The notes below the pieces were generated by a model that had not been told where the DNA came from, did no database searches, and saw nothing but the letters and a program-made list of their open reading frames with translations. Positions 1 to 15,194 of a stretch of 32,000 nucleotides of DNA are shown here, in pieces. Each line of letters starts with the position of its first letter. Within the stretch, counting starts at the first letter, position 1. Both the position numbers and the translations under genes were made by a program. This DNA is from Synechococcus sp. A15-24 (GTDB taxonomy: Bacteria; Cyanobacteriota; Cyanobacteriia; PCC-6307; Cyanobiaceae), in assembly GCF_014280195.1 (NCBI RefSeq), contig NZ_CP047960.1:2250001-2282000 (forward strand), in the 5' to 3' direction.

Positions 1-155
1 CGCTGGGCCAGGAGATCCGGCAGGGAGGCCAAGCAGTCGGGAACGACACCGCCACTACGGCCATGCACCACCAGATGCAACCCTTGACGCCCCCGATCGG
101 AAGCGTCATTCCGTAGCAATGGCCACGGATCAAAAAAAGAGCTATCTGATGTCAT
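1..155 (-). CDS. 5' end of a GC-rich host gene running off the left edge; hypothetical (the HG-containing N-terminus is faintly CbiX/SirB-chelatase-like, not established)
   Basis: Hand translation of the minus strand from ATG at 155-153 gives MTSDSSFFDPWPLLRNDASDRGRQGLHLVVHGRSGGVVPDCLASLPDLLAQ... From GLHLVV onward about 3/4 of third codon positions are G/C, like the core genes at 15-32 kb. The start is uncertain: TTG at 80-78 is an alternative, and ATG at 155 leaves only 9 nt to the ORF at 165. Confidence 0.35.
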   Translation of the reverse strand, partial: MTSDSSFFDPWPLLRNDASDRGRQGLHLVVHGRSGGVVPDCLASLPDLLAQ

Positions 156-164
156 CGAGAAGTA

Positions 165-413
165 ATGACCTGGGGTAAGTACATGGCACCTCGCCAACAA
201 AACGAACGTGCATCATTGGAAAGTCGTTTCTACCGGGCACAGACACGTCGGCGCTTTGACCTAAGCTCTACATTAATTGAATTTAAGAGTCCAAGTATGC
301 GCAAAAGGGCAAAGCCGTACGACAAGAGTTACAGACGGCAATACGAGCGGAATCGTAATTCCATCAACAGAACAACTTTTGAGTACGAACTAGAAAAGGA
401 CGTAGCCGCTTAG
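165..413 (+). CDS. hypothetical small, very basic protein (82 aa, R/K-rich); may not be a real gene
   Basis: The ORF is in the supplied track. GC is intermediate (42-52% on lines 181-301). A hairpin plus T-run follows at 434-469. I recognise no family motif. Confidence 0.25.
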   Translation: MTWGKYMAPRQQNERASLESRFYRAQTRRRFDLSSTLIEFKSPSMRKRAKPYDKSYRRQYERNRNSINRTTFEYELEKDVAA

Positions 414-433
414 AAGCCGGTTTGGCAAATGAT

Positions 434-469
434 CTGTTCGGGAGCTGCCCGCATGCTGAACAGAGTTTT
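434..469 (+). terminator. possible intrinsic terminator (imperfect hairpin plus T-run)
   Basis: CTGTTC (434-439) pairs with GAACAG (458-463), with inner AGC/GCT pairing (443-445/455-457). It is followed by AGTTTT (464-469). Confidence 0.3.
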
Positions 470-715
470 ACATCAGATTTAAATCTATAAAATGAATAGC
501 ATAGATCGCACAGGAAAAAGAATATAAAATCAACAGGGAAGCTGGGAGTCTAAAAAACCAACATTGTGCTAATATATTTCTTAAGTAGCTCGAGAAATCG
601 AAGGTTACTTCACTATCGCACGCTTTCATTATTACGTAGCGACAAAGGTCCCCGGGCCGATTAAACTGATCTACTACATTTTTTGATCGATCAGTCCGCC
701 CTATTTTCATGAATC

Positions 716-2257
716 ATGACCATCAAAAACCAAATCAACCCCTACTTCGCAGAAAAAAAATTGAATAAGATTGAAAAAAGTAAGTTGGAAAAAGATGGGC
801 TTTTAGTAGGAAGCGAAATCGAAAAGTTTGCAAAAATTGGGTGGGAAAATATGGATGAAACCGATTTAAAACTCCGTCTGAAATGGTATGGAATGTTCTG
901 GCGTCCGAAAACACCCGGAAAATTCATGCTAAGACTTAGAATACCAAATGGTGTATTGACATCCAATCAAATACGAGTTGTAGCTTCAATAGTTGAACGT
1001 TATGGAGAAAATGGAAGCTGCGACATCACCACAAGGCAAAACCTGCAACTTAGAGGAATACTATTATGCGATCTTCCCGAGATCCTTAGAAGACTGCGTG
1101 AAGCCGGACTAAGTAGCGTCCAGTCGGGCTTTGATAATCCACGAAACGTAACCGGCAATCCACTCGCAGGAATAGATCCGAACGAAATCGTCGATACGAG
1201 ACCTTACACAACTAAATTGCAGAACTTTCTCACAAATAATTGTGAGGGAAATTCGGAATATTCCAACCTACCGAGAAAATGGAACACAGCAGTCGCAGGG
1301 TCTAAAGACAATTTCCTTCTTCACAACGACATAGTGTTTCATCCCGTTGAGAATAACGGCGTGATGGGTTTTAGCATCTGGATTGGAGGGATTTTATCTC
1401 CACAGATGAACGCATATGCATTTCCCATGAATGTATGGGTATTACCTGACGAGATCTGCAACATTTTGGATACTGTGATTCGTCTCTGGAGAGACAATGG
1501 AGAAAGAGAAAAGAGAACCAAAGGACGTTTCCGCATGTATCTCGATGAGATAGGGCACGAAGAATTCCGCAGCCAAGTGGAAAAACTGTACGGAACACTC
1601 ACTCCCGATCCAGGCTCAATATTCGAAAACTCTCCACGCTCTCACTTCGGCATTAATCAGCAGAAACAAGCCGGACTTTATTTTGCTGGCATACACGTGC
1701 CGGTCGGTCGCCTCACGGCAGAGGATCTACAAGATATCGCAACAGCGAGTCTCAAATATGGAAATGGAGAAATTAGACTCACAGAAGACCAAAATATAAT
1801 TATCACAGGTCTTACGAGTGAAAAAGTTGAAGAATTAAAGACTGATACATTAATGCAGCGTTTCCCCCTAGCACCTAGCAATATTTCAGCAGGAACAGTG
1901 TCCTGCACGGGAAATACGTACTGTAGTTTTGCGCTTACCAACACTAAAGACCAAGCCTTAAAAGCAGCAAAGGAACTTGACGAGGAGTTGAACCTACCTG
2001 AAGAGATAAAAGTTCACTGGACTGGCTGTCCAAATACATGTGGACAGGCTTATATGGGAGCAATAGGTTTAACAGGTACAAAGGCTAAAAATGCTGAAGG
2101 AGTAATGGGTGAAGGCTACACAATGACTATTGGTGGTTCACAGGGTCGCAACCCAACTATTGGTCAAATCTATCGCAAAGCTATACCTGCGGCTGAAATC
2201 AAAACAGCCCTCAAGGAAGTACTTATTTCAAAATTTGGAGCTACAGAAAAGAAATAA
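716..2257 (+). CDS. nirA: ferredoxin-nitrite reductase
   Basis: 513 aa. It shows nitrite/sulfite reductase hallmarks: LKWYGMFWRPKTPGKFMLRLRIPNG and TTRQNLQLRGI. It also has the siroheme/[4Fe-4S] cysteine cluster SCTGNTYCSFA ... WTGCPNTCGQ. Confidence 0.95.
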   Translation: MTIKNQINPYFAEKKLNKIEKSKLEKDGLLVGSEIEKFAKIGWENMDETDLKLRLKWYGMFWRPKTPGKFMLRLRIPNGVLTSNQIRVVASIVERYGENGSCDITTRQNLQLRGILLCDLPEILRRLREAGLSSVQSGFDNPRNVTGNPLAGIDPNEIVDTRPYTTKLQNFLTNNCEGNSEYSNLPRKWNTAVAGSKDNFLLHNDIVFHPVENNGVMGFSIWIGGILSPQMNAYAFPMNVWVLPDEICNILDTVIRLWRDNGEREKRTKGRFRMYLDEIGHEEFRSQVEKLYGTLTPDPGSIFENSPRSHFGINQQKQAGLYFAGIHVPVGRLTAEDLQDIATASLKYGNGEIRLTEDQNIIITGLTSEKVEELKTDTLMQRFPLAPSNISAGTVSCTGNTYCSFALTNTKDQALKAAKELDEELNLPEEIKVHWTGCPNTCGQAYMGAIGLTGTKAKNAEGVMGEGYTMTIGGSQGRNPTIGQIYRKAIPAAEIKTALKEVLISKFGATEKK

Positions 2258-2371
2258 TCATTTTATAAGAAATAAAACAAGTTATGAAGCAAAGTTGATC
2301 AACAGAGAAGAGTAAAGATAATATTGCACAATTAAAAGAATTGCAATAATTAGAGTATAGAAAAAAAGATC

Positions 2372-3298
2372 ATGCTAGGGTTAAAAGGTATAACAAAGAA
2401 AGTATCGAACTTAAATCAGATGGAGAATCTATATCACATTAGAGAAAGATTCTCAATTATTCACGATAATAAGATAATAGGAATACAAATGAAATGGGAA
2501 GGTAAAAGAGAAAAACCTCCAATGCTAATGCTTCCGGCCTTAAGTACAATTTCAAGAAGCGATGAATGGCAACATTTTAAAGCAATAGTGACAGATAAAT
2601 ACCAATTAATAACAATCGATTGGCCTGGATTCGGCGAAAGTGATAAAATAGATATACACTACAGTGGAACAGTATTACAAAAAACACTAAAAAAGGCTAT
2701 CAAAGTAATACAGAGTAAAAATAACAGAAAGCTAACTATAATTGCAGCTGGTCATAGTGCCTCAGTTGTACTTACACTAAAAGACAAATACATCAATACA
2801 ATAAAACAAGTTGTGCTAATTGCACCAACATGGAGAGGTCCACTTCCAAGTATGACAGGATGGTCACCTAAGAGGCTAAATATCATAAATGAAATAGTAA
2901 GGCTTCCTATCATTGGTCCAATACTATACTTCATAAATACAACAAAAGTAATTATAAGATTAATGATGAAAAGGCATGTATGGTTAAATAAGAATGACCT
3001 TGATAATGATAAAATACGAAAACTTCAAGTATTATCTCGACAGAAGGGAGCACGATACGCAAGCGCAGCATTCGTAACAGGGAGATTAGATATAGATAAT
3101 AATAACAAGTGGTGGATATCAAATACAAATATGGTTAAAGAAATGTCTACTCTTGTTATACCGAAGGATTCACCAAAAAGATCATTATCAGAGATGGAAG
3201 CACTCTCAGAGAGCATTAAAGATATTTTATACATTAGAGGTAGGCTAGGATGCCACGAAGAATTCGGAGAAGAAATCGCAAAGAGATTATTCCACTAA
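2372..3298 (+). CDS. alpha/beta-hydrolase fold protein, function unknown
   Basis: 308 aa. It has the oxyanion-region-like motif ITIDWPGFGESD and a nucleophile-elbow-like IIAAGHSASVV. This is the most AT-rich gene sampled. Its 3' end overlaps the convergent znuB by 12 nt. Confidence 0.65.
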   Translation: MLGLKGITKKVSNLNQMENLYHIRERFSIIHDNKIIGIQMKWEGKREKPPMLMLPALSTISRSDEWQHFKAIVTDKYQLITIDWPGFGESDKIDIHYSGTVLQKTLKKAIKVIQSKNNRKLTIIAAGHSASVVLTLKDKYINTIKQVVLIAPTWRGPLPSMTGWSPKRLNIINEIVRLPIIGPILYFINTTKVIIRLMMKRHVWLNKNDLDNDKIRKLQVLSRQKGARYASAAFVTGRLDIDNNNKWWISNTNMVKEMSTLVIPKDSPKRSLSEMEALSESIKDILYIRGRLGCHEEFGEEIAKRLFH

Positions 3299-4117
3299 AT
3301 TGTAAGCACAAGAAAATACCAAGGAAAAAAGGAAGGCAAAGAATTGAAAGATTACAATTGAAGGACCTGAAGGTAGATTAAAGAAACCTGATAAGATAAG
3401 CCCAAACAGAGCACACATACCACCCAGTACCATAGAAAAAACAATATAAGAACTAAACTTACGCGAAATTAGTCTAACAGCGCATGCAGGTATTACAACG
3501 AAGGCACTTATAAGCAATGCACCAACAGACTTAATTGAAACAGATACAACAATAGCCAATAAAATTATGAAAGCAAGTTTATGGAATCTTGTGTTAATAC
3601 CAATAGAGCCAGCCAAATCCTCATTAAGAGTTAAAAGAACATGAGAACGAAGACTAAAGACAAGGTAGATAAAAGAAACAATAAAAAGGATCAATGTAAT
3701 ATATATATCTGATGCTGTAATACCAAGAATATCTCCAAAAAGCAACTGCTTAATGCTACCACTATAAGAGTTGATTTTACTTAAGGCAAGAACAGCTGCT
3801 GCTAGAGAGCTAGAATATACGATATTCAATAGTGCGTCGGTAGGCAAAGAACTGCGCTCAACTAGATTATTTACAAGAAATGCAAAGATAATGGCAAAAG
3901 GAATAAGAACAAAAGTAGGATTCACATTTAAAAGGATACCTAGAGTTATACCGAGCAAGGCAGAATGCCCTAATGCATCACTAAAAAAAGCAAGTTGTCG
4001 GAGTACAGCAAAAGAACCTATAAGCCCTCCTAAAGAACCAGTTAAAAAGCCACCAATTAATGCGCGGTGAATAAATGGCTCATCAAATAACTCAAAAAAA
4101 GTTGATAAATCACCCAC
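3287..4117 (-). CDS. znuB: ABC-3 family metal (Zn/Mn) transporter permease
   Basis: 276 aa, polytopic and hydrophobic throughout, ZnuB/MntB/TroCD-like. The GTG start overlaps the znuC stop by 8 nt (GTGGGTGA). Confidence 0.85.
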   Translation of the reverse strand: MGDLSTFFELFDEPFIHRALIGGFLTGSLGGLIGSFAVLRQLAFFSDALGHSALLGITLGILLNVNPTFVLIPFAIIFAFLVNNLVERSSLPTDALLNIVYSSSLAAAVLALSKINSYSGSIKQLLFGDILGITASDIYITLILFIVSFIYLVFSLRSHVLLTLNEDLAGSIGINTRFHKLAFIILLAIVVSVSIKSVGALLISAFVVIPACAVRLISRKFSSYIVFSMVLGGMCALFGLILSGFFNLPSGPSIVIFQFFAFLFSLVFSCAYNLVE

Positions 4118-4877
4118 GACATTGATGCTGATAAGAAACTATATTGGGCCCATAGAGAACACTTAATCTTTCGGAAGTCAATGCAAGATTAGGTATACCT
4201 CGGCAGCACAAACGTCTATTTAAACCAAGTACTTGATCGCTACTACGGAGAACCATATCAATATCGTGAGATATATGGAGGACAGTCCAACCTTCCTGCC
4301 GACGCAATTCAAATAACATTTTTTGAAAACGTTGAGTTGAAGGTATATCTAGACCAGCCTGTACTTCGTCCAAAACAAGAAGATCCCTCGGACGTACGAT
4401 ACAAAATGCAAGCATAACGCGCTTCAGTTCACCGCCAGAAAGTTCACTAAGAAGACGTCGTCTTAAATTAAAAGTATCGGTTCTTTCCAAAGATCGATGA
4501 ACTAAAATCTTAGTACGGGAGTCCCGCATGCGGAGAAAGGACGAACTATTACTAAGTCCAAGTTGCACGAACTCAAATACGGAGAGGGGAAACTGACCCT
4601 GAAAAGAAAAATTCTGTGGAATATAAGAAATTCGCTCACGTATGGATTTCGGTAGATACCCAGCTTTATTCATTTTGGTGCCCATAATATTGATGTCACC
4701 TGAGACGCGCGGAATAAGACCCAACAAGGAGGCAACTAAGGAACTTTTACCAGCACCATTAGGGCCAACTAAAGCTGTATCACTTTCAGCTAATAATTCA
4801 AAAGAAACATCATCTACAACAACATTGGCACCCCTTCTTACAGTAAGATTCTTAACAGAAGCAATTGGATATGACAT
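4110..4877 (-). CDS. znuC: metal (Zn/Mn) ABC transporter ATP-binding protein
   Basis: Walker A GPNGAGKSS, ABC signature LSGGELKR, Walker B LLVLDE. It starts 3 nt downstream of znuA. Confidence 0.9.
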   Translation of the reverse strand: MSYPIASVKNLTVRRGANVVVDDVSFELLAESDTALVGPNGAGKSSLVASLLGLIPRVSGDINIMGTKMNKAGYLPKSIRERISYIPQNFSFQGQFPLSVFEFVQLGLSNSSSFLRMRDSRTKILVHRSLERTDTFNLRRRLLSELSGGELKRVMLAFCIVRPRDLLVLDEVQAGLDIPSTQRFQKMLFELRRQEGWTVLHISHDIDMVLRSSDQVLGLNRRLCCRGIPNLALTSERLSVLYGPNIVSYQHQCRG

Positions 4878-4880: not shown

Positions 4881-5792
4881 TTAACCACCAAGAGAGAGAA
4901 GAAGATTGGACAGGTTATCCCGCATAAGGTCAAAATAGAGAGACTCGTCATACACAAAATCCTGTGAAATAGTTTCAATAGGATTGAATAGTGCTATTTC
5001 AATATTAAGATCACGTGCCAACGAATTGAAAGAATTGCTTCCATCTTGAGGCTCAGTTAAAAGAGCCTTTAAATCGGAATCTCGAACAAGATTCGAAACT
5101 CGCTGTAAATCAGCAGGGCTTGGATTGATATCTGGCAGATCAACTAAGTATTCAGCTTTTAATTGATATCGTTCAGCAAAATATGGTGCAAAGTCATGAT
5201 AAGCGATAAATGATTTGCCCTGATAAGGCTCCAACTTGGATAAAATTTCAGCATGCAATGCGAGCAAGTTATCCACATAAGCTAAGGCATTTGAAGTATA
5301 GACCTCACTACAAGCAGGGTTTAAATCCACAAGAGCATCTTTAATAGTCTCTACCTGGCTAATAGCACGTATAGGATCTAGCCATATATGAGGATTAGGA
5401 TCAGAATAAGAATTCGCGTTAGAGATATCAGTAGAAATAGTCTTGATGCCAACACTAGTGTCAACAACGGATAATGTTGTACTCGCTGCTGAAGAGATTA
5501 GCCTGTCTAAAAAAGTCTCCATTCCCAAGCCATTAATAAAAAATACATCAGCCTTGCCAATAGATAGGATGTCCTTAGGGGTTGATTGAAAATCGTGTGG
5601 TCCAATATTTGTGGGGATTAAAGCTTTGACATCTCCGCATTCACCGGCTACTGCCCTTGCAAATAGTGTTATCGGAAGGAATGAGGTCATAATGGAAATC
5701 TTTTTAGACCCCTCAGGAGGCGTTGTGAGGGAGCCGCAAGAAACCAAAAAAATGGATGCTAGCGAGCCACTAATCCACTTACTCAAGCGCAT
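4881..5792 (-). CDS. znuA: cluster-9 (TroA/ZnuA family) metal-binding lipoprotein
   Basis: Lipoprotein signal ...SIFLVSC|GS. Metal-ligand contexts GPHDFQ, NPHIWLDP and AYHDFAPYF are present. There is no His-rich loop, so Zn versus Mn cannot be decided from this protein alone. The neighbouring COG0523 gene favours Zn. Confidence 0.8.
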   Translation of the reverse strand: MRLSKWISGSLASIFLVSCGSLTTPPEGSKKISIMTSFLPITLFARAVAGECGDVKALIPTNIGPHDFQSTPKDILSIGKADVFFINGLGMETFLDRLISSAASTTLSVVDTSVGIKTISTDISNANSYSDPNPHIWLDPIRAISQVETIKDALVDLNPACSEVYTSNALAYVDNLLALHAEILSKLEPYQGKSFIAYHDFAPYFAERYQLKAEYLVDLPDINPSPADLQRVSNLVRDSDLKALLTEPQDGSNSFNSLARDLNIEIALFNPIETISQDFVYDESLYFDLMRDNLSNLLLSLGG

Positions 5793-5822: not shown

Positions 5823-5892
5823 CGAAAAAACAAAGATCTTTCTGAATCACCGAAAAAACAAGGCGATATAAGCTGCCCGGGATTAGTATAAT
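5823..5892. promoter_or_regulatory. divergent znuA / COG0523 control region: perfect TATAAT, an 11-nt direct repeat and a 10-bp palindrome
   Basis: TATAAT lies at 5887-5892, 20 nt before ATG 5913. CGAAAAAACAA occurs at 5823-5833 and 5851-5861. The palindrome AAAGATCTTT lies at 5832-5841. I could not recognise a canonical Fur/Zur box. Confidence 0.3.
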
Positions 5893-5912
5893 TGTTGAAC
5901 ATCCATCTCGTA

Positions 5913-7295
5913 ATGAAAGAAAAGCGAAAGGTTCCTGTCACCATACTTACTGGCTACCTTGGGGCAGGGAAAACCACACTTTTAAACAAGATCTTGAGAG
6001 AAGAGCACGGCAAAAAAATTGCAGTCATAGAAAACGAATACGGCGAGGTTGGAATTGATCAAGGACTCGTCATTAACGCAGACGAAGAGGTCTTTGAAAT
6101 GTCTAATGGTTGCATTTGTTGCACGGTAAGAGGTGATCTGATAAGAGTCCTAGGCAATCTAATGAAACGTAGGGACAAATTTGATTACGTTTTAGTTGAA
6201 ACGACCGGCCTCGCTGACCCAGGGCCGGTAGCACAAACTTTTTTTATGGATGATGAAGTTAGAGATGAATTCACTCTTGATGGAATAGTGACGTTAGTAG
6301 ATTCTGCACACATTAATCAACAATTGGAACATAGCACTGAAAGTGCAGAGCAGGTCGCCTTCGCGGACGTACTCATACTCAATAAAACTGACTTAGTTTC
6401 CAAAAACGAAGTCAATGTACTTGAATCACGCCTTCGAGATATGAACAAAATGGCCCGTATACTGCGTGCAAAAGAAGCCGGGGTCGATGTTGAAGATGTC
6501 TTGAATCTTGGTGCATTTGATCTCCAGCAAACATTAGATAGACGTCCGACATTTCTCGAACCTGAATATCCGTTTGAGTGGACCGGAGTATATGAACTTA
6601 AGAAAGGAAACTACAGGCTTTATTTTGATGATGGACCTGATCCAACAATGCTAATAACAGCAATAAAATGTGATAGTTCAAATGGAAAAGATCTTGACGA
6701 ATACGCCGAAGATTGTGTAAGAATATTCTCAAAAGAACCTAAAAAACTTTTACCAGGTGAAGCAATAAGCTTTAACGAGGTTATTGAATTACAATTACAA
6801 GATGCTGGTCAAAAGCTCTTTGAATTATATATAGACAATAAATCAACTATAGGTCTCTTCACTCAACATACGGCAGAAGAATTTAATATAAGACTGGATG
6901 AAAATAAAGATGATCAGCCCAGAGATAAGGAATTTAGCAATATAACTAAGGGGATCGATACAAAGACCGAAAGAATATGGGTAGCAGAACACGAGCATGA
7001 CGATGAAGTTGGATCTATTGCCCTAGAAAGCCTTGGCAACATTAATCCAGATAAATTAAACGATTGGATTTCTAAACTTCTCCGAGAAAAAGGAGTAGAT
7101 ATATTTAGAACCAAAGGGTTTATCAGCTACGCTGAAGAATCTAGAAAAATTGTATTTCAAGGGGTCCATATGTTATTTACTGCAGAACCTGGAAGCGAGT
7201 GGGGAAACGAGCCCAGGAAGAATCAACTTGTATTCATAGGCCGAAATTTAGACGAGGATGCATTAAGGACTGAGTTTCAAAAATGTCTAGCATGA
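5913..7295 (+). CDS. COG0523 (CobW/G3E family) GTPase, putative zinc metallochaperone, with an unusually long inter-domain insert
   Basis: G1 GYLGAGKTT, metal motif GCICC, VETTG and NKTD are present. The HEHDDEV linker is followed by a CobW_C-like end (FRTKGF...VFQGV...LVFIG). I place the start at ATG 5913, because the track's TTG 5892 lies inside the TATAAT box. Confidence 0.9.
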   Translation: MKEKRKVPVTILTGYLGAGKTTLLNKILREEHGKKIAVIENEYGEVGIDQGLVINADEEVFEMSNGCICCTVRGDLIRVLGNLMKRRDKFDYVLVETTGLADPGPVAQTFFMDDEVRDEFTLDGIVTLVDSAHINQQLEHSTESAEQVAFADVLILNKTDLVSKNEVNVLESRLRDMNKMARILRAKEAGVDVEDVLNLGAFDLQQTLDRRPTFLEPEYPFEWTGVYELKKGNYRLYFDDGPDPTMLITAIKCDSSNGKDLDEYAEDCVRIFSKEPKKLLPGEAISFNEVIELQLQDAGQKLFELYIDNKSTIGLFTQHTAEEFNIRLDENKDDQPRDKEFSNITKGIDTKTERIWVAEHEHDDEVGSIALESLGNINPDKLNDWISKLLREKGVDIFRTKGFISYAEESRKIVFQGVHMLFTAEPGSEWGNEPRKNQLVFIGRNLDEDALRTEFQKCLA

Positions 7296-8350
7296 AAAGA
7301 TCTAACAGCATTTTTCAAGGTGGATGGTACAGTGAAATTAATGAATACGTAATAGCTTGTGACTGGGCACTCGAAAATAAGAATATTATTGCTGCAGATA
7401 TAACAGGCAATATTTACTCTTTTGATGCAAAAACAGGGAAGTTACTATACATGCAAAAAGACACTCACAACAAATCACTCTTAGATCTAGCAGTAAATCC
7501 CAATGGAAGCATATATGCAACTTGTGGCCAAAACGGCAAGGTTGATATTAATGCGGCTTCAGATGGAAGCTTACTAAGTTCAAGCTCATTAGGCAATGAT
7601 TGGATTGATAATATACAATGGACAAATAACGGAAAATTATTAGCCGGTAGCATTGGAAAGTTCGTACATGTGATTGATTCGTCAGGAAATCAATTATGGA
7701 GTTCCGATGAACTGACAAGTACTGTGTCAGCAATTTATTGGTCAAATAATAGCGAATTAGCGATAGCAAGCTACGGCCAAGTGATTATTTATGATGTGAA
7801 AACCAATAAAGTTTGTCAAAGATTTGAGTGGAAGGGATCTCTTATATCATTGGCATTGAGCCCAAACGGGGAGATTGTAGCTTGTGGAAGTCAAGACAAT
7901 TCAGTACATTTTTGGCGACGAACTAATGGTAAAGATGCAGAAATGACTGGTTATCCTGGCAAACCTAAAGATATTGTGTTTGATATTACGGGAAAATATT
8001 TAGCTACAGGGGGAAGCCCCCAAGTTACAGTATGGAACTTTAAAAATAAGGGTCCTGAGGGAACAATTCCGGGGCAACTTATACTTCATAATGAGCCGAT
8101 AAGTTGCCTAAGCTTTGCCAACAGTAGCTCATTATTAGCATCTGGTGCAAAAGATGGGTCAATTGCAATTTGGAAATTAGATAAAAATGGAGATGGTGAG
8201 CCCATTGACAAGATATCCATCAACTCGACGCCGACACGACTAAGATGGAAAAAAGATGATAATGCCTTTTTAGCTGCTAGCGACTCGGGGAAATTATTCT
8301 GCTGGGATATACCGTCTAAAAATGGAGAAGGATTCGGATTCAAAAAGTAA
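7283..8350 (+). CDS. WD40 beta-propeller repeat protein
   Basis: 355 aa of roughly 40-aa repeats, for example GSQDNSVHFW, TGGSPQVTVW, SGAKDGSIAIW and ASDSGKLFCW. The ATG overlaps the COG0523 stop by 13 nt. Confidence 0.85.
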   Translation: MSSMKRSNSIFQGGWYSEINEYVIACDWALENKNIIAADITGNIYSFDAKTGKLLYMQKDTHNKSLLDLAVNPNGSIYATCGQNGKVDINAASDGSLLSSSSLGNDWIDNIQWTNNGKLLAGSIGKFVHVIDSSGNQLWSSDELTSTVSAIYWSNNSELAIASYGQVIIYDVKTNKVCQRFEWKGSLISLALSPNGEIVACGSQDNSVHFWRRTNGKDAEMTGYPGKPKDIVFDITGKYLATGGSPQVTVWNFKNKGPEGTIPGQLILHNEPISCLSFANSSSLLASGAKDGSIAIWKLDKNGDGEPIDKISINSTPTRLRWKKDDNAFLAASDSGKLFCWDIPSKNGEGFGFKK

Positions 8351-8616: not shown

Positions 8617-8696
8617 GATTTTTAATGGGCCGATAATAGAGTCCTTTATAATAACATGAATGTTTATAATATAGAAAGAACCCGAGCCCATTGCTA

Positions 8697-9020
8697 ATGA
8701 ATGAAGAATCAGCAAAAAGTAACGAAGGCCAAGATATTTTTTCACAATTAATGAAAGAAGTAAGTACTCTTGCTTTATTAAAAGAATCAGGTGCAAGTAT
8801 TATTCAAGGAAAGATTTTAATAATTATCGTTGGAATTGAAAAGGATGGAGAATTTTTAAAGGGCAATGAGATACAACCTAAACATTGCAATATAAGCAAT
8901 GAAGAAGAATTCCAAGAATTTATTAAAGGTAATTACAAAAATGTTGATACGTTATATGTAAGATACTTTAGACCCGGAGACATAGAATTAAGTGAAATTA
9001 CTAAATACATAATAAAATAA
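8697..9020 (+). CDS. hypothetical protein (107 aa from ATG 8697)
   Basis: This is the only long ORF in this interval. TATAAT-like boxes lie upstream at 8648-8672. There is no recognisable motif. Confidence 0.4.
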   Translation: MNEESAKSNEGQDIFSQLMKEVSTLALLKESGASIIQGKILIIIVGIEKDGEFLKGNEIQPKHCNISNEEEFQEFIKGNYKNVDTLYVRYFRPGDIELSEITKYIIK

Positions 9021-9060: not shown

Positions 9061-9927
9061 CTAAGAAGACTCCTCAACTGCTCTTGTTTCGCGTAGGAGA
9101 TGATCCTCAAGTTGGAGTTTGATATCAATGAAGAGAGAATCTTTTTCTATAATATTACGGATTCTGGGCCTTGGCAAAGGGACATCTATAATATCTGCAA
9201 TATTTGCAGATGGTCCACTTGACATAAGCACAATTTTGTCAGACATTAATAATGCTTCTTCAATACTGTGTGTAATTAAAAGAGCTGTGACTCTATTTTT
9301 CTCCCATATTTTTAACACTTCTTCTTGCAAATAGGACCTTGTAAGGGCATCAAGGGCTCCAAAAGGCTCGTCCATAAGTAACATAGACGGATTAATAGAC
9401 AAAGCTCGTGCAATAGCAACTCTCTGCTTCATACCACCTGAAATTTGCTTTGGAAACTTGTTCATTGAGCGTTCTAACCCAACCATATTCAAAAAGTATC
9501 TGGCTTTTTCACGCCTCTGTGAGGTACTTAGTTCTGGACAGGCCGTCTCTAAGGCATATTCGATGTTGCCTGCGGCGGTAAGCCAGGGCATCAGTGCGTA
9601 GTTCTGAAAAATTATGCCTCTGTCTGGACCAGGGCCAACCAGTGGCTTGCCTTCGATGAAAATTTCACCAGACGTGAAATCATCTAATCCTGCTAAAAGA
9701 TTCAAAAGCGTTGATTTACCACAGCCTGAAGGGCCAATCAAAGAGACAAAAGTGTTCTTTTTAATATCAAGATTTATACCTTCAAGAGCAATATAGTTCT
9801 CAGTTTTTTTGTTAAAAAGAGAAGGTCGAGAAATTGGGAAAACTTTTCTTAGATTTACAATTTCAACATGAGATTCATGTTCCTTGTAAGAAATGGAATC
9901 AGCTGAACTGGGAGCAGATTTAGTCAT
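9061..9927 (-). CDS. cynD: NitT/TauT-family ABC transporter ATPase, probable cyanate transporter component
   Basis: Walker A GPSGCGKST, signature ISGGMKQR, Walker B LLMDEP. A single-ATPase operon next to cynS fits the cynABD type rather than nrtABCD. Confidence 0.8.
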   Translation of the reverse strand: MTKSAPSSADSISYKEHESHVEIVNLRKVFPISRPSLFNKKTENYIALEGINLDIKKNTFVSLIGPSGCGKSTLLNLLAGLDDFTSGEIFIEGKPLVGPGPDRGIIFQNYALMPWLTAAGNIEYALETACPELSTSQRREKARYFLNMVGLERSMNKFPKQISGGMKQRVAIARALSINPSMLLMDEPFGALDALTRSYLQEEVLKIWEKNRVTALLITHSIEEALLMSDKIVLMSSGPSANIADIIDVPLPRPRIRNIIEKDSLFIDIKLQLEDHLLRETRAVEESS

Positions 9928-10703
9928 AAATCGTAATTGAATCGAAGTTGCAAAATCTCAAAGATTTGATCCAGTACATAACCAGTTATACCTATGATTA
10001 TAATTGCTACAAATATGTTAGCTACATATAAATTGTTCCATTCATTCCATATAAAATATCCGATACCCGTGCCTAGAAGCATTTCAGCAGCAACTATTAC
10101 AAGCCATGCTGTACCCATTGAAATTCTCATCCCAGCTAAAATATTTGGCATTACTGCAGGTAAGATGACTTTGGTAATGGTATTAGTTTTGGAAGCACCT
10201 AATGACTTTGCAACTTTTAAGACATCAGAATCTACAGATTGAACACCAATTGCGGTATTAATTAAAGTCGGCCAGATGCTTGTAATAAAAATGACAAAAA
10301 TACCGGTAACTTCTGAATTTCTAAATACGAATAAGCCAATGGGCAGCCAGGCAAGCGGTGAGACCGGTTTCAGTAGTTGTACATAAGGATCAACAGAAGA
10401 CTTAACGGTTTTGGAAACACCAACAAAGAGACCGAGTGGAATTGCAACAACCATTGCAAGTGTGTAACCAATTAGAACTCTTCTTAAGCTTATAAGTAAA
10501 TTAAAACCAATACCTAAATCGTTAGGACCGTTATCAAAAAATGGATCTGATATCCACCATAATAATTCCTGAAAGGTCTTTAAAGCCCCTGGAAAATTAG
10601 GAATTAAATTGGCACTGGCTATAATTTCCCAAACAACGCAAAAAGAAAGGAGACTAGATCCTGAGATCAGTAACGATCTCAGGATTGTTGACTTTGTAGA
10701 CAT
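9924..10703 (-). CDS. cynB: NitT/TauT-family ABC transporter permease, probable cyanate transporter component
   Basis: 259 aa polytopic permease. It overlaps cynD by 4 nt and starts 5 nt after cynA. Confidence 0.8.
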   Translation of the reverse strand: MSTKSTILRSLLISGSSLLSFCVVWEIIASANLIPNFPGALKTFQELLWWISDPFFDNGPNDLGIGFNLLISLRRVLIGYTLAMVVAIPLGLFVGVSKTVKSSVDPYVQLLKPVSPLAWLPIGLFVFRNSEVTGIFVIFITSIWPTLINTAIGVQSVDSDVLKVAKSLGASKTNTITKVILPAVMPNILAGMRISMGTAWLVIVAAEMLLGTGIGYFIWNEWNNLYVANIFVAIIIIGITGYVLDQIFEILQLRFNYDL

Positions 10704-10708: not shown

Positions 10709-12388
10709 CTATACACCGTCCCTATCAATTTGTTTGCTGACATAGCCCAACGGATCAGTAGGGTCAAAACTGTCGTATGCAAGCTTCTCAGTCTTGAACG
10801 AACGGGAGGGAGGATTGAACCCCAACTCCCTCTCCAAAGATTGAGCTTCATTTGTTAGGAATATTGCGGCACTATTAGCATTAAAGTCACCAGCTTTAAT
10901 TGCGTCAGCAGCTCCTCCAAGGTCCCATCGTACAAGTTGAGACTGAATCCAATGTGAAAAGCTCTGCCAAGGATAAGGTTTAAAATCTATTCTGTCAGGG
11001 ACATTTTTCTTATTGCCCAAGCCGTCATCGAACTTGCCTGTCAAAACAGCTTCAACGACTTTAGTCGGTTGGTTTAGAAAGGCGCGGCCAGAAATGTATT
11101 TCGCAATTTCAGATCTGTTAGTAGGATTTGTTGCATAATTCGCAGCTTCAATAATAGATTTATTGATGGCTTTAAAAGTATTTGGATGCTTATTAATCCA
11201 GGGTTCTCCCGCAGCGAAAGCGCAGCATGGATGACCAACCCAGAGATCCTTAGTTAGAAGGTGAATAAAACCAACACCTTCAAACACAGCTCTCTGATTA
11301 AATGGATCAGGCATCAAATATGCATCGATATCACCTGCAACCATCTGGGCAACACTGTCCGGTGGTGGTACAGGGCGAATTTGTACATCCTTGTCAGGAT
11401 CAACTCCACCCTTAGCGAGGTAATATCTAAGTAGTAAATTATGCATCGAGTATGGGAATGGTACTCCGAATACAAAGCCTTTCATGTCTGCGGCAGATTT
11501 AACTTTATCCTTGTGGCGATTAGCTACAGTTATTGCTTGTCCGTTGATATTTTCAATACTGGCTAGTTTGACGCTGAATGGAGAAGTTCCCAATCCCAAA
11601 GTCATAGAGATAGGCATTGGTGCGAGCATGTGATAAGCATCAAGCTCACCTGCAATGGCCGAATCGCGAACAGCTCCCCAACTTGGCATTTTCACAACCT
11701 TACATTTCAACCCATTAGATTTATAAAAACCCATAGGTTCTGACATGATTATCGGTGTTGCACATGTAATTGGAATGAATCCAATCTTCAAGTTAGTTTT
11801 CTCTAATTTACCGCCGGCATGACCTGCTGCATGAGCATCTTGAGTATCTAATCCTGCACTATTGGCAATTGTTATCATGGCCGCACCAGCAGCCAATCCT
11901 TTGAGAAATGACCTTCTTCCAAAAGGGGAACTAGAGTGAATAGAGGCGAAGAATTCACCTGCTTGAGGACCAAAAGCTGCTGCCATCGCTTGGTCTAATC
12001 CACCGGCTTCTTCAGCTAGTGCCCGCAAAAGCTTTTCCTTGGCAGGATCACCTTGAGAAGCGTTCTTATAAAAAAGAATTTCTCTAAGCTCCGCTGATGA
12101 AACAGCCTCAGCGACTTCTACAGCATCGGCTTTAATCAAACCCATTTTATAAAAATCATCCATCAAATCCTCAGGATCTGAAGGCATATCTTCGGTAAAA
12201 TCTTGATGATCTGGGCTAAATGGCCGGCACTCTACACAGAAGCAAAACAAACCATGACCGGTTTGGGGTTGAAAGGAAGGAGAACTTGATGTAGCTTCCG
12301 TAGTGCTATTACATTGAAGCTGTGACTTAAGAATCTCAGCGGCAGTCTGAGTAGTTGTGGATGCATGCGAGGTGAAAAGATTCGCCAC
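10709..12388 (-). CDS. cynA: NrtA/CynA-like periplasmic substrate-binding protein with a consensus Tat signal preceded by a long N-terminal extension
   Basis: GRRSFLKGLAAGAAMITIANSAG has RR at residues 158-159, followed by AHA|AG. An NrtA/CmpA/CynA-like body follows (KIGFIPITCATP ... YHMLAPMP). The GTG start at 12388 lies 22 nt downstream of a -10 box that is correctly spaced from a perfect NtcA box. Confidence 0.8.
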   Translation of the reverse strand: MANLFTSHASTTTQTAAEILKSQLQCNSTTEATSSSPSFQPQTGHGLFCFCVECRPFSPDHQDFTEDMPSDPEDLMDDFYKMGLIKADAVEVAEAVSSAELREILFYKNASQGDPAKEKLLRALAEEAGGLDQAMAAAFGPQAGEFFASIHSSSPFGRRSFLKGLAAGAAMITIANSAGLDTQDAHAAGHAGGKLEKTNLKIGFIPITCATPIIMSEPMGFYKSNGLKCKVVKMPSWGAVRDSAIAGELDAYHMLAPMPISMTLGLGTSPFSVKLASIENINGQAITVANRHKDKVKSAADMKGFVFGVPFPYSMHNLLLRYYLAKGGVDPDKDVQIRPVPPPDSVAQMVAGDIDAYLMPDPFNQRAVFEGVGFIHLLTKDLWVGHPCCAFAAGEPWINKHPNTFKAINKSIIEAANYATNPTNRSEIAKYISGRAFLNQPTKVVEAVLTGKFDDGLGNKKNVPDRIDFKPYPWQSFSHWIQSQLVRWDLGGAADAIKAGDFNANSAAIFLTNEAQSLERELGFNPPSRSFKTEKLAYDSFDPTDPLGYVSKQIDRDGV

Positions 12389-12410
12389 AAATCTGGTTCA
12401 TAGTTCCATA

Positions 12411-12453
12411 TTTATAGTTGGAAAGTGAACGCGGATGTTGTATCAAGTGATAC
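12411..12453 (-). promoter_or_regulatory. NtcA-activated (class II-like) promoter of the cynA operon
   Basis: The minus strand reads GTATCACTTGATAC (12453-12440; GTA-N8-TAC). A 23-nt spacer follows, then TATAAA(T) (12416-12411), then 22 nt to the GTG at 12388. Confidence 0.65.
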
Positions 12454-12659: not shown

Positions 12660-12672
12660 AATCGCCTTAAGA

Positions 12673-12879
12673 TTAAAGGGTATCTTCATTAGGATCTTTG
12701 TCCTCCAAGACAACTACATCAATTTCTTTCTTAAATTCATCAGAGGCGGATCTAAAACCGCCCAAATATTTAGCCAAATATTTTCCAACTTTGGGCAAAC
12801 TATTAGGCCCTAAGACTAATAAAAAAGAAATAAGGCATATAATTAGTAGCTCAGGAAAACCTAATCCAAAAAAGCTCAT
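12673..12879 (-). CDS. tatA: TatA/E-family twin-arginine translocase subunit, divergent paralog
   Basis: The sequence is MSFFGLGFPELLIICLISFLLVLGPNSLPKVGKYLAKYLGGFRSASDEFKKEI... This is the typical TatA layout: a TM helix, a hinge Gly, then an amphipathic helix. The usual FGPKKLP motif reads LGPNSLP here. Confidence 0.8.
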   Translation of the reverse strand: MSFFGLGFPELLIICLISFLLVLGPNSLPKVGKYLAKYLGGFRSASDEFKKEIDVVVLEDKDPNEDTL

Positions 12880-13287
12880 TTGTGATTGACCGCTAATTTA
12901 TTATAGCTGTGCCGTTAAGATCATCAAGTTGATTTTAGACATATTTAAGATTACCAATTTTGCTTTTGTAAGATTACTATCGAACGGTATACGTGCATAA
13001 TGTAAAGTCATGCAGTAAACAATATAATAAATTGATTTACAAGCAATCAATTAGCTGGCACATTCTCCTAATATTCGGCCTCAAAAGTATATGATCGTTT
13101 GTGGTATTCTCTTAATTCATTGCTTTTTTAACCACTCAGACTTCAAAATAGTATAAGGATATATAACTTTATCTCAAATGCCTTATTACAATCAAAAAAG
13201 AGTCGAGTTCTGGTTGGTACAGACGTGAAAGTAAAATACTGACAAGTTGATAGAAAATCGTAATTGTTATCCGACAACGAATTCTTA

Positions 13288-13301
13288 GTAGAACTGGATA
13301 C
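13288..13301. promoter_or_regulatory. second perfect GTA-N8-TAC (NtcA-type) box, orphan within a long spacer
   Basis: The box is GTAGAACTGGATAC. No well-spaced -10 lies on the plus side. On the minus side TACGAT sits 25 nt away (13262-13257). About 0.2 such boxes would be expected by chance in this spacer. Confidence 0.3.
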
Positions 13302-13390
13302 CATTTAATTACAATTAATGAAGTTTAGATAAATTCAGCATACATCATTTGTCTAGAGCGAGTATTAATCATTTACCTATGTAACCATAA

Positions 13391-13549
13391 ATGAAAAATC
13401 ATACGCTCAGATTCAGCAAGCCTAAAATAGGGAAAATGATATGTGATATATTCATACGATACCAAGACTATATAGTAGACTTGTTGTGTTCGTTTCTACA
13501 CAATGAAGAATTACATCTTGAAATCAAAAAAACTACTTACGCTAAATAA
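13391..13549 (+). CDS. possible 52-aa upstream ORF ending 2 nt before the HEAT-repeat gene
   Basis: Hand translation: MKNHTLRFSKPKIGKMICDIFIRYQDYIVDLLCSFLHNEELHLEIKKTTYAK*. It is below the track cut-off. I recognise no family. Confidence 0.2.
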   Translation: MKNHTLRFSKPKIGKMICDIFIRYQDYIVDLLCSFLHNEELHLEIKKTTYAK

Positions 13550-13551
13550 CC

Positions 13552-14277
13552 ATGAAGGATACTGAATCAGATCTGTGGGAGAGACTCGGCAATTCACGTA
13601 AGGTTCCCTTGGATCCTTGTTGGTTAGAAAATGTCTATTCGCCCAACCTTGCTACTGATCTGCGGCTAGCTCTCTGTGAAAAAATGGGTATGCTTGCAGA
13701 TCGTGGCTGGCCTATTATTGAACATTTACTGCAACGCTATGGCGACATGCCTGATTTGGTGATGGCCGCAGGACTCTGCCATCAAATTGAGGCCCGTGAA
13801 TGGTTACTGGAATTGCTCAAGCGCAGCAATTATAATGAAAAACTTCAACTAACTGCAGTTCAATCGCTTGGTTGTTGGGGTGCTGAAGTTCCCGAAGCAA
13901 TCGTCACTCATTGCTTACATCATCCTGGTCAAAATTTTCGACTCGCTGGTCTTCAATTGCTGGAATTTCGCTCACACCTTCTAACAGATCACCAACTCTT
14001 GGATTACTGTAATGAAGCACTCAACGATTTTCGGGATTCAGTTGTTATTGCAGCAATCCGTATAATTCAGCGTCGTGACAGTAAAGAAATCTGCAAACAA
14101 TTATTTTGTTTGTGTCAAGAAGACTCTCACGAAGTCGCATTTACCGCACTCCGTGCTCTTAGCTGTATAGCATCCGAAAATAGCAAAAGATATCTACTGA
14201 AACTTAGTAAAACCCTAAAAAGTGAATCAAGACGATTATTAGCCCAAAAAAAACTTAACGAACAGTTTAGATCTTAA
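13552..14277 (+). CDS. HEAT/PBS-lyase-like repeat protein, function unknown
   Basis: 241 aa, all-helical, with repeated units such as ...LTAVQSLGCWG..., ...RLAGLQLLEF..., ...VIAAIRIIQ... and ...AFTALRALSC... GC is intermediate (about 42%). Confidence 0.5.
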   Translation: MKDTESDLWERLGNSRKVPLDPCWLENVYSPNLATDLRLALCEKMGMLADRGWPIIEHLLQRYGDMPDLVMAAGLCHQIEAREWLLELLKRSNYNEKLQLTAVQSLGCWGAEVPEAIVTHCLHHPGQNFRLAGLQLLEFRSHLLTDHQLLDYCNEALNDFRDSVVIAAIRIIQRRDSKEICKQLFCLCQEDSHEVAFTALRALSCIASENSKRYLLKLSKTLKSESRRLLAQKKLNEQFRS

Positions 14278-14322
14278 AGCCCAATGACAATTGGACTATA
14301 GATAAGTCGAAAGCCTAAGTTT

Positions 14323-14757
14323 TTACCATTTCTTGTAGGGTAAAAACTTACCACACATTACAATTTTGACACGATCACCTTTAGGGTCCACAACTTTATC
14401 GACATCTATAGTGAAATCAATAGCACTCATAATTCCATCTCCGAAATGCTCCTGAATTACATCTTTCAGAGGCATGCCATACACCTGCATGATCTCGTAA
14501 AAACGATAAATCAAAGGATCAGTGGGAATCACTGGCTCAAGGCTTCCCTTGGTTGGGTACTCCTGCAGTGCCGCTGTTGTTTCTGCATCAAGGGATAACA
14601 AACCAGCAAGTTTCTCGGCCTCCTCCTTCGAGGCCGTCGCTTGGCCATAGAACAAAGATGCAACCCAAACCTCATCGAGACCAATAGCCGCCTCGAGATC
14701 AGCAAAACTCATACCTTTGGCCTTTTTGGCGGCCATCAACGTGGCTGTTAAAGACAT
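14323..14757 (-). CDS. cynS: cyanate hydratase (cyanase)
   Basis: Translation from ATG 14757 gives [40 protein letters not shown]... The C-terminal cyanase domain follows: [38 protein letters not shown]. The 10 extra codons in the track look like read-through upstream of the true ATG. Confidence 0.95.
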
Positions 14758-15194
14758 AACGGTTAAGCGAACAATGAACTGCCTCAAAGCAGCATTCCAG
14801 ATCGGAACGTCTCAGCAGCATCGTAAGTGTCACCCAGCAGATGCACTCAAAATGCAGCAACGGCGACCAAATCAATTCATCGTTTTGATGCATCGCATAC
14901 AACAGACACGTTCCCGTGACGCTGCAACAAAAAAACTATATTACAATTATATGGTTCAGCTCTTTCGGGAAAGCTCGTCGTTGTTGTTCAGCCAACAATT
15001 GCAAGCAAAACCGGCCATCAACCTCGCCCTCGAGCGTCTGTACTACGCCGATGGTCGTCACAACCCCGACCATCCCCGGCACGGCAGCTTCGATGGACTG
15101 AATGTCCTGCCACAAAGCTAGGACGATTAGTATCAATCACTACGTTCACGGAGTCCGGCACTCCTGAACACTTCGCTCAGCTGAAGGGACATCT

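Follow-up and report, generated by a model that had tools for sequence, protein, structure and literature searches.

The closest described counterpart of the element considered here, an AT-rich block at positions 129 to 15,011 of a 32,000-nt stretch of Synechococcus sp. A15-24 DNA (the window), is found in Synechococcus WH8102 (clade III), where a predicted island, SYNW2477-SYNW2491, holds putative zinc (SYNW2479-2481) and cyanate (SYNW2485-2487) ATP-binding cassette (ABC) operons (PMC3744912). In this island, SYNW2477 has been identified as nirA and SYNW2487 as a binding-protein gene (PMC6716455), and the second znuABC of WH8102 has been shown to be neither Zn- nor Zur-regulated (PMC9337993). 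The cyanate transporter genes cynABD correspond to the clade III island Syn_GI013 (Dore et al., 2020; PMC7522525), and among Synechococcus they are present in only few genomes, mostly of clade III (PMC10119275). When compared by published locus tags, the WH8102 island and the block share the order nirA-znu-cyn and a place in the nitrogen-assimilation region, and no mobility genes are mentioned in the sources concerned (PMC3744912, PMC6716455, PMC9337993, PMC7522525). The block belongs to an already described class of object: its architecture is that of the WH8102 island, with strongly diverged proteins and with a GC contrast that is both persistent and of unusual size.

Unlike WH8102, the flank of the window groups with the metagenome-assembled genome (MAG) TMED177 and the clade of locus L004 (comparison loci and contigs are numbered with L), with no genome representative above 82% identity in the TrpD-like border gene. 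No named genome-derived picocyanobacterial ZnuA exceeds ~54% identity to that of the window, and the NirA and CynA proteins of WH8102 could not be identified among the best 120 matches to the window proteins. The evidence suggests, at a probability that we put at about 60%, that the block is an old flexible island at the nirA-cynS slot, which has been exchanged by homologous recombination and whose AT-richness is an old and maintained property of the cassette, as opposed to the mark of a recent foreign import.

More generally, islands of marine Synechococcus have been defined chiefly by deviation in tetranucleotide usage, and a region of core function, encoding the phycobilisome rods, has been shown to behave as an island with an incongruent phylogeny (Dufresne et al., 2008; PMC2441476). 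The block resembles these islands in its deviating oligonucleotide composition, in its strain-variable content and in its borders, which under that definition may be core genes, tRNAs or mobility genes and which here are formed by the core genes CbiX-like and TrpD-like. As in those islands, genes of core function may be included, and the phylogeny conflicts with that of the core, implying exchange between lineages. It differs from them in the unusual size of its contrast (~23 GC points, and ~35-40 points at third codon positions), in covering the near-universal residents nirA and cynS, and in having no tRNA or integrase at its borders.

Another related arrangement occurs in HLII Prochlorococcus, in the order znuB-zur-znuC-znuA-COG0523-WD40-cynABDS-tatA (GCA_000634215, L111), of which the cynABD part has been described as Pro-eCAG_005 (Dore et al., 2023). 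In this region, as in the window, overlapping COG0523 and WD40 genes, cynABD and tatA are neighbours; in L111, tatA follows cynABDS, and CynA, CynB and COG0523 are 71%, 75% and 67% identical to those of the window. In the window, unlike the HLII region, cynABD is inverted relative to the COG0523-WD40 pair, a resident Synechococcus-type cynS stands outside the operon, the metal transporter is of another family (26-31% identity) and zur is absent; the two resemble each other no more closely in sequence than core genes of vertical descent do. The cynABDS genes of Synechococcus elongatus PCC 7942 encode an experimentally characterised cyanate transporter and cyanase. The window likewise holds a binding protein (CynA, 66% identical), a permease, an ATPase and a cyanase, the specificity being predicted from sequence; unlike in PCC 7942, tatA and a HEAT-repeat gene separate cynS from cynABD, and cynS has its own promoter region.

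Composition, integrity and gene order of the block

An earlier reading of this DNA, made from its letters (hereafter the sequence-only reading), had described a sharp drop in GC, and in GC at third codon positions (GC3), between about 131 and 15,000. This drop is confirmed: GC is 38.8% across 131-15,000 as opposed to 64% in 1-120 and 61.6% in 15,001-32,000, and maximum likelihood places the change points at 129 and 15,011. In consecutive 500-nt segments, GC is 0.30-0.48 in each from 501 to 15,000 and 0.53-0.67 in 15,001-32,000; GC3 of the open reading frames (ORFs) is 0.18-0.48 in the block and 0.68-0.80 in the flanks, and four-fold degenerate sites have 29% GC in the block versus 77% in the flank. 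The shift extends to the proteins, where the residues F, Y, M, I, N and K make up 28.6% in the block versus 17.2% in the flank, and G, A, R and P 22.9% versus 31.7%. Resident genes are included, as nirA itself has a GC of 42% and a GC3 of 38%.

The very sharp steps might be explained by an assembly or binning chimera that joined a low-GC to a high-GC picocyanobacterium, and it is also the case that metagenome contigs bearing the island are mostly short and often break near its edges (L003 starts at window 501). The low-GC block is nevertheless no assembly error, because the right junction is also crossed, with an equivalent rise in GC from 31% to 65%, by L087, a metagenome contig from another data set that differs by 4%. 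The same right junction is found in L089 (Tara), which represents a second lineage ~25% diverged in nucleotides; both edges fall at syntenic positions seen in closed genomes; and comparable, weaker steps are present in the closed isolate genomes MIT S1220, MIT S9503 and KORDI-100. A chimera is therefore given next to no credence. Other parts of the block are matched by L003 (JGI) at 97.5% nucleotide identity over window 501-3,614, by L113 (Tara) at 90.9% over 1,474-7,730 and by L085 (ENA) at 97.8% over 7,996-12,738, with L087 (GenBank MDSV01191740) at 95.9% over 12,816-17,008.

In Synechococcus and LLI Prochlorococcus, a nitrogen-assimilation cluster has been described between pyrG and ppk (PMC6370341). 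Gene order in this region was compared with L001 (MAG CUG2138, whose NirA is 78% identical) and with 80 loci anchored on the TrpD-like gene. Relatives have, in sequence, cobA, a CbiX-like gene of 219 aa, an 82-aa ORF, nirA, focA, HEAT, cynS, TrpD-like, GNAT, MFS, ppk and a sigma factor, while in the window the order runs from the CbiX-like gene through the small ORF and nirA to an accessory module, followed by HEAT, cynS and the TrpD-like gene. It follows from this order that nirA, HEAT and cynS are syntenic residents in their ancestral positions. The edges of the block lie exactly at the start of the CbiX-like gene on the left and upstream of the start of the TrpD-like gene on the right, and both coincide with divergent promoter regions beside conserved genes.

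The accessory part is confined to 2,258-12,879 (~10.6 kb, from the hydrolase gene to tatA) and stands in place of focA. The module of hydrolase, znu, COG0523, WD40 and cynABD genes was found in 0 of the 80 TrpD-anchored loci, which have focA there instead; their sole cyn or znuC matches, at 25-48% identity in freshwater loci, are probably nitrate-transporter genes. KORDI-100 was considered as an isolate that might carry the island and was rejected, as its locus has nirA, HEAT and the TrpD-like gene and is without the accessory module, focA and cynS. The block can accordingly be pictured as two layers, a resident one in ancestral order (small ORF, nirA, HEAT, cynS) and an accessory one (hydrolase, a Zn/Mn-family ABC importer, a putatively translationally coupled COG0523-WD40 pair, cynABD and tatA), which together would make it a chromosomal flexible island that occupies the slot of the nirA-cynS cassette, in the nitrogen-assimilation part of the pyrG-ppk region. 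The sequence-only reading had proposed that a nitrogen-assimilation neighbourhood was replaced; the block does sit in that neighbourhood, but no single unit was replaced, since nirA, HEAT and cynS are resident and only 2,258-12,879 is extra.

The same reading had seen no mobility genes or tRNA at the edges, and searches for tRNAs, Rfam and Pfam families, repeats and phage similarity bear this out. No tRNA or tmRNA was found in the 32-kb window, no Rfam family matched in it, no integrase, recombinase, transposase or phage Pfam domain was detected in any ORF scanned, no direct repeats bracket the block (only imperfect, chance-sized matches of 14-31 nt were seen), and blastn returned no match among 50,697 phage records. 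The block carries none of the marks of a self-mobile integrative element, namely an integrase, a tRNA with repeats, phage or conjugation genes, or similarity to phage. A phage as its vehicle was also considered and dropped, there being no similarity to phage genomes.

Protein affinities and exchange between lineages

A tree of the flank genes places the host inside marine Synechococcus subcluster 5.1, sister to TMED177 and next to the L004/L006/L012 clade, the best identities of the flank proteins being 82% for TrpD-like, 88% for ppk, 95% for the sigma factor and 92-93% for AcnB. NirA is 72-80% identical to proteins of Synechococcus 5.1 (best 80%, in the L004 clade) and 63-72% to those of Prochlorococcus, and in its neighbour-joining tree it falls on the Synechococcus side, where it forms a long basal branch of 5.1. 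L116 breaks this branch, with a NirA that is 84% identical to that of the window and 81-82% to ordinary 5.1 proteins, and NirA is for this reason read as a protein of 5.1 that is AT-driven and evolves fast. CynS is 84-92% identical to Synechococcus 5.1 (best 92%, L004/L006/L012 clade) and 69% to HLII Prochlorococcus, and in its tree it nests in 5.1 among the clade neighbouring the flank (L039, L012, L008, L004), paired with the low-GC L032. Judged by these affinities, NirA and CynS classify as marine Synechococcus 5.1 types, not Prochlorococcus types. HEAT is 52-66% identical to that of other Synechococcus, 72% to that of the island-type loci L088 and L089, and 94% to that of L087.

The accessory proteins have more scattered relatives. 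CynA is 66% identical to a cluster holding the PCC 7942 CynA (ABB58137/AAB58736), its homologues lie in cynABD-cynS operons, and it reaches 71-74% in three contexts: L111 (HLII Prochlorococcus, GC 32%), L084 (Cyanobium-like, 70% GC) and L086 (Tara, 44% GC). To the cynABDS clusters of the same three, cynB is 71-76% and cynD 65-68% identical. Relatives of the ZnuA-family protein at or above 72% are metagenomic only. The znuB-like permease and znuC-like ATPase are 90% and 95% identical in L113 and 83% and 86% in L114; the hydrolase is 84% identical in the island variant L113 and absent from the 80 related loci.

The sequence-only reading had named a low-GC relative of Prochlorococcus-like composition as the inferred donor. 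If DNA of such a donor had recently taken over the neighbourhood, this would agree with the GC of 38.8% and with an oligonucleotide signature that matches Prochlorococcus-like composition; moreover, cynABD is present in some HLI and HLII Prochlorococcus (PMC10119275). The proteins speak otherwise, however, since both NirA and CynS are closer to Synechococcus than to Prochlorococcus, as detailed above. With CynD (65%) and WD40 (46%) counted in, identity of the accessory proteins to HLII Prochlorococcus spans 46-75%, inside or below the 54-85% found for core genes, and they therefore give no sign that Prochlorococcus was a recent source. The znu genes are more distant still, belonging to a family different from the Prochlorococcus znuABC-zur system, and the island alleles of two host clades are ~25% diverged in nucleotides. 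In terms of sequence, the block's proteins thus appear neither to nest within Prochlorococcus nor to be closer to it than core genes are, and a recent donor of this kind is considered very unlikely.

Exchange within Synechococcus is indicated by L089, where cynA, HEAT and cynS at low GC are followed by a TrpD-like gene at 61% GC. The TrpD-like fragment of this contig shares 88-93% identity with the L004/L006/L007/L032 clade but 84% with the window, whereas its HEAT matches that of the window at 72% and those of the L004 clade at only 57-59%, so that island allele and flank have different histories. The cassette has thus passed from one 5.1 clade to another, the crossover lying near the cynS/TrpD-like boundary. 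This conflict between HEAT and TrpD-like directly supports the homologous recombination in conserved flanks that the sequence-only reading had invoked. Equal divergence at four-fold sites had suggested that, between the window and L089, island and flank simply diverged together by vertical descent; this was dropped, as the flank of L089 is that of the L004 clade.

Similar patterns are found within clades. Between L032 and L006, which belong to one clade, both flanks are 87-94% identical in nucleotides, while the segment from the CbiX-like end to the TrpD-like start is 65-80% identical with sharp edges; in the regions compared (5000-10000 in L032), GC of the cassette is 42-52% in L032 and 54-62% in L006. 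L033 (8100-9600) and L034, of the MIT S1220 group, likewise have a divergent cassette between similar flanks, and in these within-clade pairs of nirA-focA-HEAT-cynS cassettes the more AT-rich allele is the divergent one. The nirA-cynS locus thus behaves as an allelic hot spot elsewhere too. In the mechanism favoured here, the cassette would be gained, lost and swapped among Synechococcus lineages by homologous recombination, with no self-transfer, and crossovers would fall in the two conserved border genes, the left CbiX-like and the right TrpD-like one.

Age, recurrence and cause of the AT-richness

Divergence between island alleles bears on the age of the composition. Between the window and L114, L088 and L089, 43-67% of island four-fold sites differ, and GC at these sites (GC4) is 16-42% in each; in the flanking TrpD-like gene, 54% of four-fold sites differ and GC4 is 71-75%. 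By a rough F81-type estimate, which assumes that the alleles diverged inside GC-rich hosts, ~55% turnover toward the host GC4 of ~75% would take a starting GC4 of 10-25% to ~46-53%, as opposed to the 16-42% observed. The junction-spanning sequences found (window, L087, L089) all have GC-rich flanks; the CbiX-like fragment of L116 is of intermediate GC. A recent origin, which the composition might suggest, is contradicted by this degree of change between the alleles of two clades, both of which are AT-rich. The genes are under purifying selection: they are full length, and relative to L113 they have changed at 13-21% of four-fold sites while keeping an amino-acid identity of 84-96%.

AT enrichment at this slot has been found to recur. 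In a survey of loci with Synechococcus-like flanks (n = 52 for nirA, 61 for HEAT and 68 for cynS), the GC3 of nirA, HEAT and cynS lies below that of the flank by a median of 4.6, 5.9 and 8.1 points, respectively, and by about 35, 40 and 27 points in the window; focA, which the window does not have, shows no deficit (+4.4). About 10-16% of loci have a deficit of more than 15 points, and the deficits of the window exceed all those found outside the island's own lineage. Among closed genomes, MIT S1220 (L033, 5000-10000) has a GC of 42-47% versus 58-61% and a nirA GC3 of 29 versus a flank mean of 59, KORDI-100 (L115, 10000-13000) has 45-48% versus ~60% in a 1-kb profile, and MIT S9503 (L019, 5000-10000) has a dip over the nirA-cynS cassette. 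No description of an AT shift over nirA-cynS in Synechococcus was found among the papers searched. Alleles with a strongly lowered GC (window type, L032, MIT S1220, KORDI-100) do not cluster with one another, the L032 HEAT for example being closest to its own clade-mates (76-78%), and AT enrichment at the slot therefore arose more than once. A single spreading low-GC nirA allele was also considered and rejected, as the window NirA is 74% identical to L032, L033 and L054 but 80% to the high-GC L004.

The sequence-only reading had reasoned that an old resident region would show itself by proteins of the same clade as the flank and by relatives with the same low GC. The first part holds in that NirA and CynS are of 5.1 types like the flank, apart from the long basal branch of NirA; the second holds only in part, since dips recur in relatives but are usually modest, and nirA of the nearest clade is GC-normal, with a GC3 of 75-79 that equals its own flank.

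As to cause, it is inferred that a variably present and poorly recombining segment escapes the forces that raise GC in the freely recombining core, which would be GC-biased gene conversion and selection on codon usage, and that AT-biased mutation then sets its composition. A bolder extension, which we hold only tentatively, is that the nirA-cynS cassette is a compositional domain with an AT-rich equilibrium of its own, of which the window represents the most extreme known state; it is possible, with similar reserve, that the segment stays at ~25-30% neutral-site GC through site turnover while the adjacent core stays at ~75%. If true, the locus would be a natural experiment on what raises GC in free-living marine bacteria, in which mutation bias could be told apart from recombination-linked GC-biased conversion or from selection for nitrogen thrift.

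Several observations weigh against an old, maintained AT-richness. The composition-normalised tetranucleotide signature of the block is nearer to Prochlorococcus (r = 0.75-0.81) than to its own flank (r = 0.58), while the flank correlates at r = 0.86-0.95 with other Synechococcus; this comparison had been proposed with the sequence-only reading, and its outcome is the Prochlorococcus-like one. The age argument rests on divergence within GC-rich hosts, and there may instead have been two independent imports from unsampled low-GC donors. NirA sits on its basal long branch and not with the sister of the flank, which might point to a deeper origin or be an artefact of the long branch or of composition. 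The GC-rich left flank inside the window amounts to only ~130 nt, no independent contig was found across the left junction, for which support is from synteny only, and the CbiX-like fragment of L116 has a low GC3 (0.41). Lastly, narB and moa genes in relatives are not AT-shifted, from which it follows that nitrogen-regulated function alone does not explain the pattern, and focA is GC-normal even in dipped cassettes.

Some of these points would be accommodated if the cassette or its module had been imported long ago from an unsampled low-GC picocyanobacterial lineage and had spread in 5.1, its AT-richness being a decaying relic. Such an origin would account for the basal NirA branch and the Prochlorococcus-like signature, for the presence of a COG0523, WD40, cynABD and tatA module in HLII Prochlorococcus as well, and for an island ZnuA subfamily so remote from every named genome-derived picocyanobacterial relative. 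It is rather unlikely, however, in view of a CynS that nests inside 5.1 among the clade neighbouring the flank, of an L116 NirA that bridges the long branch, of a GC4 well below that predicted by F81 relaxation, and of low-GC alleles, such as that of L032, that arose independently in their own clades.

It could also be proposed that the island is as described but that its AT-richness is selected, since the genes would be expressed under nitrogen shortage and AT-rich DNA, RNA and proteins hold fewer nitrogen atoms. Block proteins do carry less side-chain nitrogen per residue (0.322 versus 0.370 in flank proteins), and the block holds nitrogen-scavenging genes and a candidate NtcA promoter. A lower nitrogen content is, however, an automatic by-product of AT-rich codons, and the metal transporter, the hydrolase and intergenic DNA (30.7% GC) are as AT-rich or more so; together with the unshifted narB, moa and focA of relatives and the GC-normal nirA of the closest clade, this makes nitrogen thrift an improbable cause.

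The old, maintained island favoured here has consequences beyond the locus. Cyanate uptake by cynABD would circulate in at least two 5.1 host backgrounds beyond the few cultured, mostly clade III genomes, as part of a package that also holds a metal importer and a COG0523-WD40 pair and that occupies a fixed slot for recombination, and this packaging bears on how nutrient-gene distributions in ocean metagenomes are read. A 23-point GC drop resembles fresh foreign DNA, yet here it covers residents and has outlasted heavy synonymous turnover, and therefore composition alone misdates and misattributes the origins of islands. Because island composition is Prochlorococcus-like, composition-based binning of picocyanobacterial MAGs tends to lose or misassign island contigs.

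Annotated features, predicted functions and side observations

Genes were identified by Pfam and NCBIfam searches of the ORFs (Table 1), and the list of nirA, znuABC-like, COG0523, cynABD, cynS and accessory genes drawn up in the sequence-only reading stands.

Table 1. Features of the AT-rich block and its borders, in window coordinates.
Feature	Position	Strand	Basis or remark
AT-rich block, 38.8% GC vs 62-64% in flanks	129..15011	.	Change points, GC profiles, GC3 per ORF
CbiX-like gene, 5' end, GC-rich, runs off window	1..155	-	Reads MTSDSSFFDPWPLLRN...LVVHGRSGG
Small ORF, 82 aa, upstream of nirA	165..413	+	Weak counterpart of 82-aa ORF there in relatives
nirA, ferredoxin-nitrite reductase, resident	716..2257	+	NCBIfam NF007125, 860 bits vs cut-off 594; Pfam NIR_SIR
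Alpha/beta-hydrolase-fold protein, accessory	2372..3298	+	Weak Pfam Hydrolase_4 and Abhydrolase_1, both below cut-off
Metal ABC permease, znuB-like, ABC-3 family	3287..4117	-	Pfam ABC-3, E = 3e-58
Metal ABC ATPase, znuC-like	4110..4877	-	Pfam ABC_tran
Cluster-9 metal-binding lipoprotein, ZnuA family	4881..5792	-	Pfam ZnuA, E = 2e-61
COG0523 (CobW/ZigA-like) metallochaperone GTPase	5892..7295	+	Pfam cobW and CobW_C; GCICC motif
WD40 beta-propeller protein	7283..8350	+	Pfam WD40 families; overlaps COG0523 stop by 13 nt
ORF, 109 aa, without known family	8691..9020	+	94% identity in L085; no Pfam family
cynD, cyanate ABC transporter ATPase	9061..9927	-	Pfam ABC_tran
cynB, cyanate ABC transporter permease	9924..10703	-	Pfam BPD_transp_1
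cynA, NrtA/CmpA-family binding protein	10709..12388	-	Pfam NMT1_2, E = 7e-79
Candidate NtcA-activated promoter of cynABD	12440..12453	-	GTATCACTTGATAC, 23 nt, TATAAA; ends 52 nt upstream of cynA start
tatA/E-like gene, 68 aa	12673..12879	-	Pfam TatA_B_E, 35.7 bits vs cut-off 21
HEAT-repeat protein, resident, fast-evolving	13552..14277	+	Pfam HEAT_2; synteny
cynS, cyanase, resident	14323..14787	-	TIGR00673, 204.5 bits vs cut-off 113.3; Pfam Cyanate_lyase, E = 7e-36
Second perfect GTA-N8-TAC site	15130..15143	+	cynS/TrpD-like divergent spacer, right edge
TrpD-like gene, PRK07394 family, first GC-rich gene, right flank	15195..16265	+	NCBIfam NF005635, 560 bits vs 287

At the left border, the CbiX-like fragment matches, at 49% identity, the N-terminal part of the 219-aa protein encoded at the equivalent place in L001, a protein which itself matches CbiX weakly (20.5 bits, cut-off 22), and a CbiX-like gene precedes nirA in L001, L115 and L116. 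The adjacent 82-aa ORF is 35% identical to its counterpart in L001 over 98 aligned positions (pairwise E = 2e-10) and belongs to no Pfam family; it is a putative gene. At the right border, the TrpD-like gene has a GC3 of 0.68 and is preceded by cynS in relatives, as it is here; the likely start of cynS is the ATG at 14757.

Two nitrogen sources are predicted to be served by the block. NirA would reduce nitrite to ammonium in nitrite scavenging, and CynABD is predicted to import cyanate, which CynS would split to ammonium and CO2; the protein passes the cyanase model, and a CynA-type binding protein lies adjacent to cynB and cynD. The parts of a ZnuABC-type importer are also present, with a cluster-9 binding protein, an ABC-3 permease and an ATPase. 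The binding protein has the lipobox LVSCGS and three conserved His motifs, scores under every NCBIfam equivalog cut-off (AztC 121.5 versus 350, ZnuA 90.7 versus 268) and obtains similar scores from Mn-type models, and the His-rich loop typical of ZnuA was not found in its sequence. Because it passes no equivalog model and has no such loop, the system is named a Zn/Mn-family importer; with its COG0523 partner it probably imports zinc or manganese, and the position of the COG0523 gene next to it favours zinc, without proving it.

The cynABD genes are probably under NtcA control, the position of the candidate promoter being suggestive only, as the window holds three GTA-N8-TAC sites versus 2.2 expected, with no enrichment, and the site upstream of cynA is the only one with the canonical layout. 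The remaining perfect site (13288-13301) lies in a 670-nt non-coding stretch between tatA and HEAT (12880-13551), which at 30.7% GC is the most AT-rich part of the block and has no Rfam match; this stretch may be the HEAT promoter region or the scar of a module insertion.

The likely start of the COG0523 protein is Met8, at 5913. The COG0523 and WD40 genes overlap by the same 13 nt in the window (5892-8350) and in HLII Prochlorococcus (L111 6305-8715; L112 5945-8355), and in both the pair adjoins cynABD, although WD40 identity is low; in the Tara contig L086, a COG0523 gene (383-1369) abuts cynABDS. This conserved neighbourhood suggests that the pair is functionally linked to cyanate or metal use, a link for which no description was met in the literature.

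As predicted, CynA has an N-terminal extension of ~150 residues, including a CFCVEC motif, before a Tat-like signal RRSFLKGLAAGAA (residues about 158-174). This long form, of roughly 490-580 aa, is found in most top homologues (query coverage 86-100%), and the CynA entries of PCC 7942 are annotated at 395, 440 and 529 aa. In L084 (10000-14000), of about 70% GC, the cynABD-cynS operon is a local GC minimum of 57-65%, which makes this a second, unrelated context in which cyanate genes tend to be more AT-rich than their host. A 134-aa ORF at 14717-15121, which overlaps the 5' end of cynS antisense, crosses the right change point and belongs to no Pfam family, is probably not a gene; at this position only ORFs of 54-66 aa are called in relatives.

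At four-fold sites between 716 and 14787, A exceeds T on the + strand in genes of both orientations (hydrolase A 64, T 26; znuB coding strand T 57, A 26), with HEAT as the exception, while in the GC-rich flank C exceeds G on the + strand instead. The A-over-T asymmetry is strand-linked, perhaps via replication, and not transcription-linked; transcription-coupled deamination, which was considered as a source of the AT-richness, is unsupported, as the excess follows the + strand and not the coding strand.

Just outside the block, the MFS gene at 16692-17990, beside the GNAT gene in the GC-rich flank, is dimorphic among Synechococcus. That of the window is 82-93% identical to L005, L020, L024, L025, L028, L001, L023 and L036 and 62-67% to other loci, and close relatives differ in type (L019 is 96% identical to L040 and L017, and 64-65% to L023, L013 and L036), so that the gene looks like a second site of allelic replacement. 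Further to the right, a few kb beyond the sigma-factor gene, where the window has none, patches of low GC (37-47%) are present in L031 and L033 (16000-18000) and in L043 (15000-19000), and these are further variable islands of the neighbourhood.

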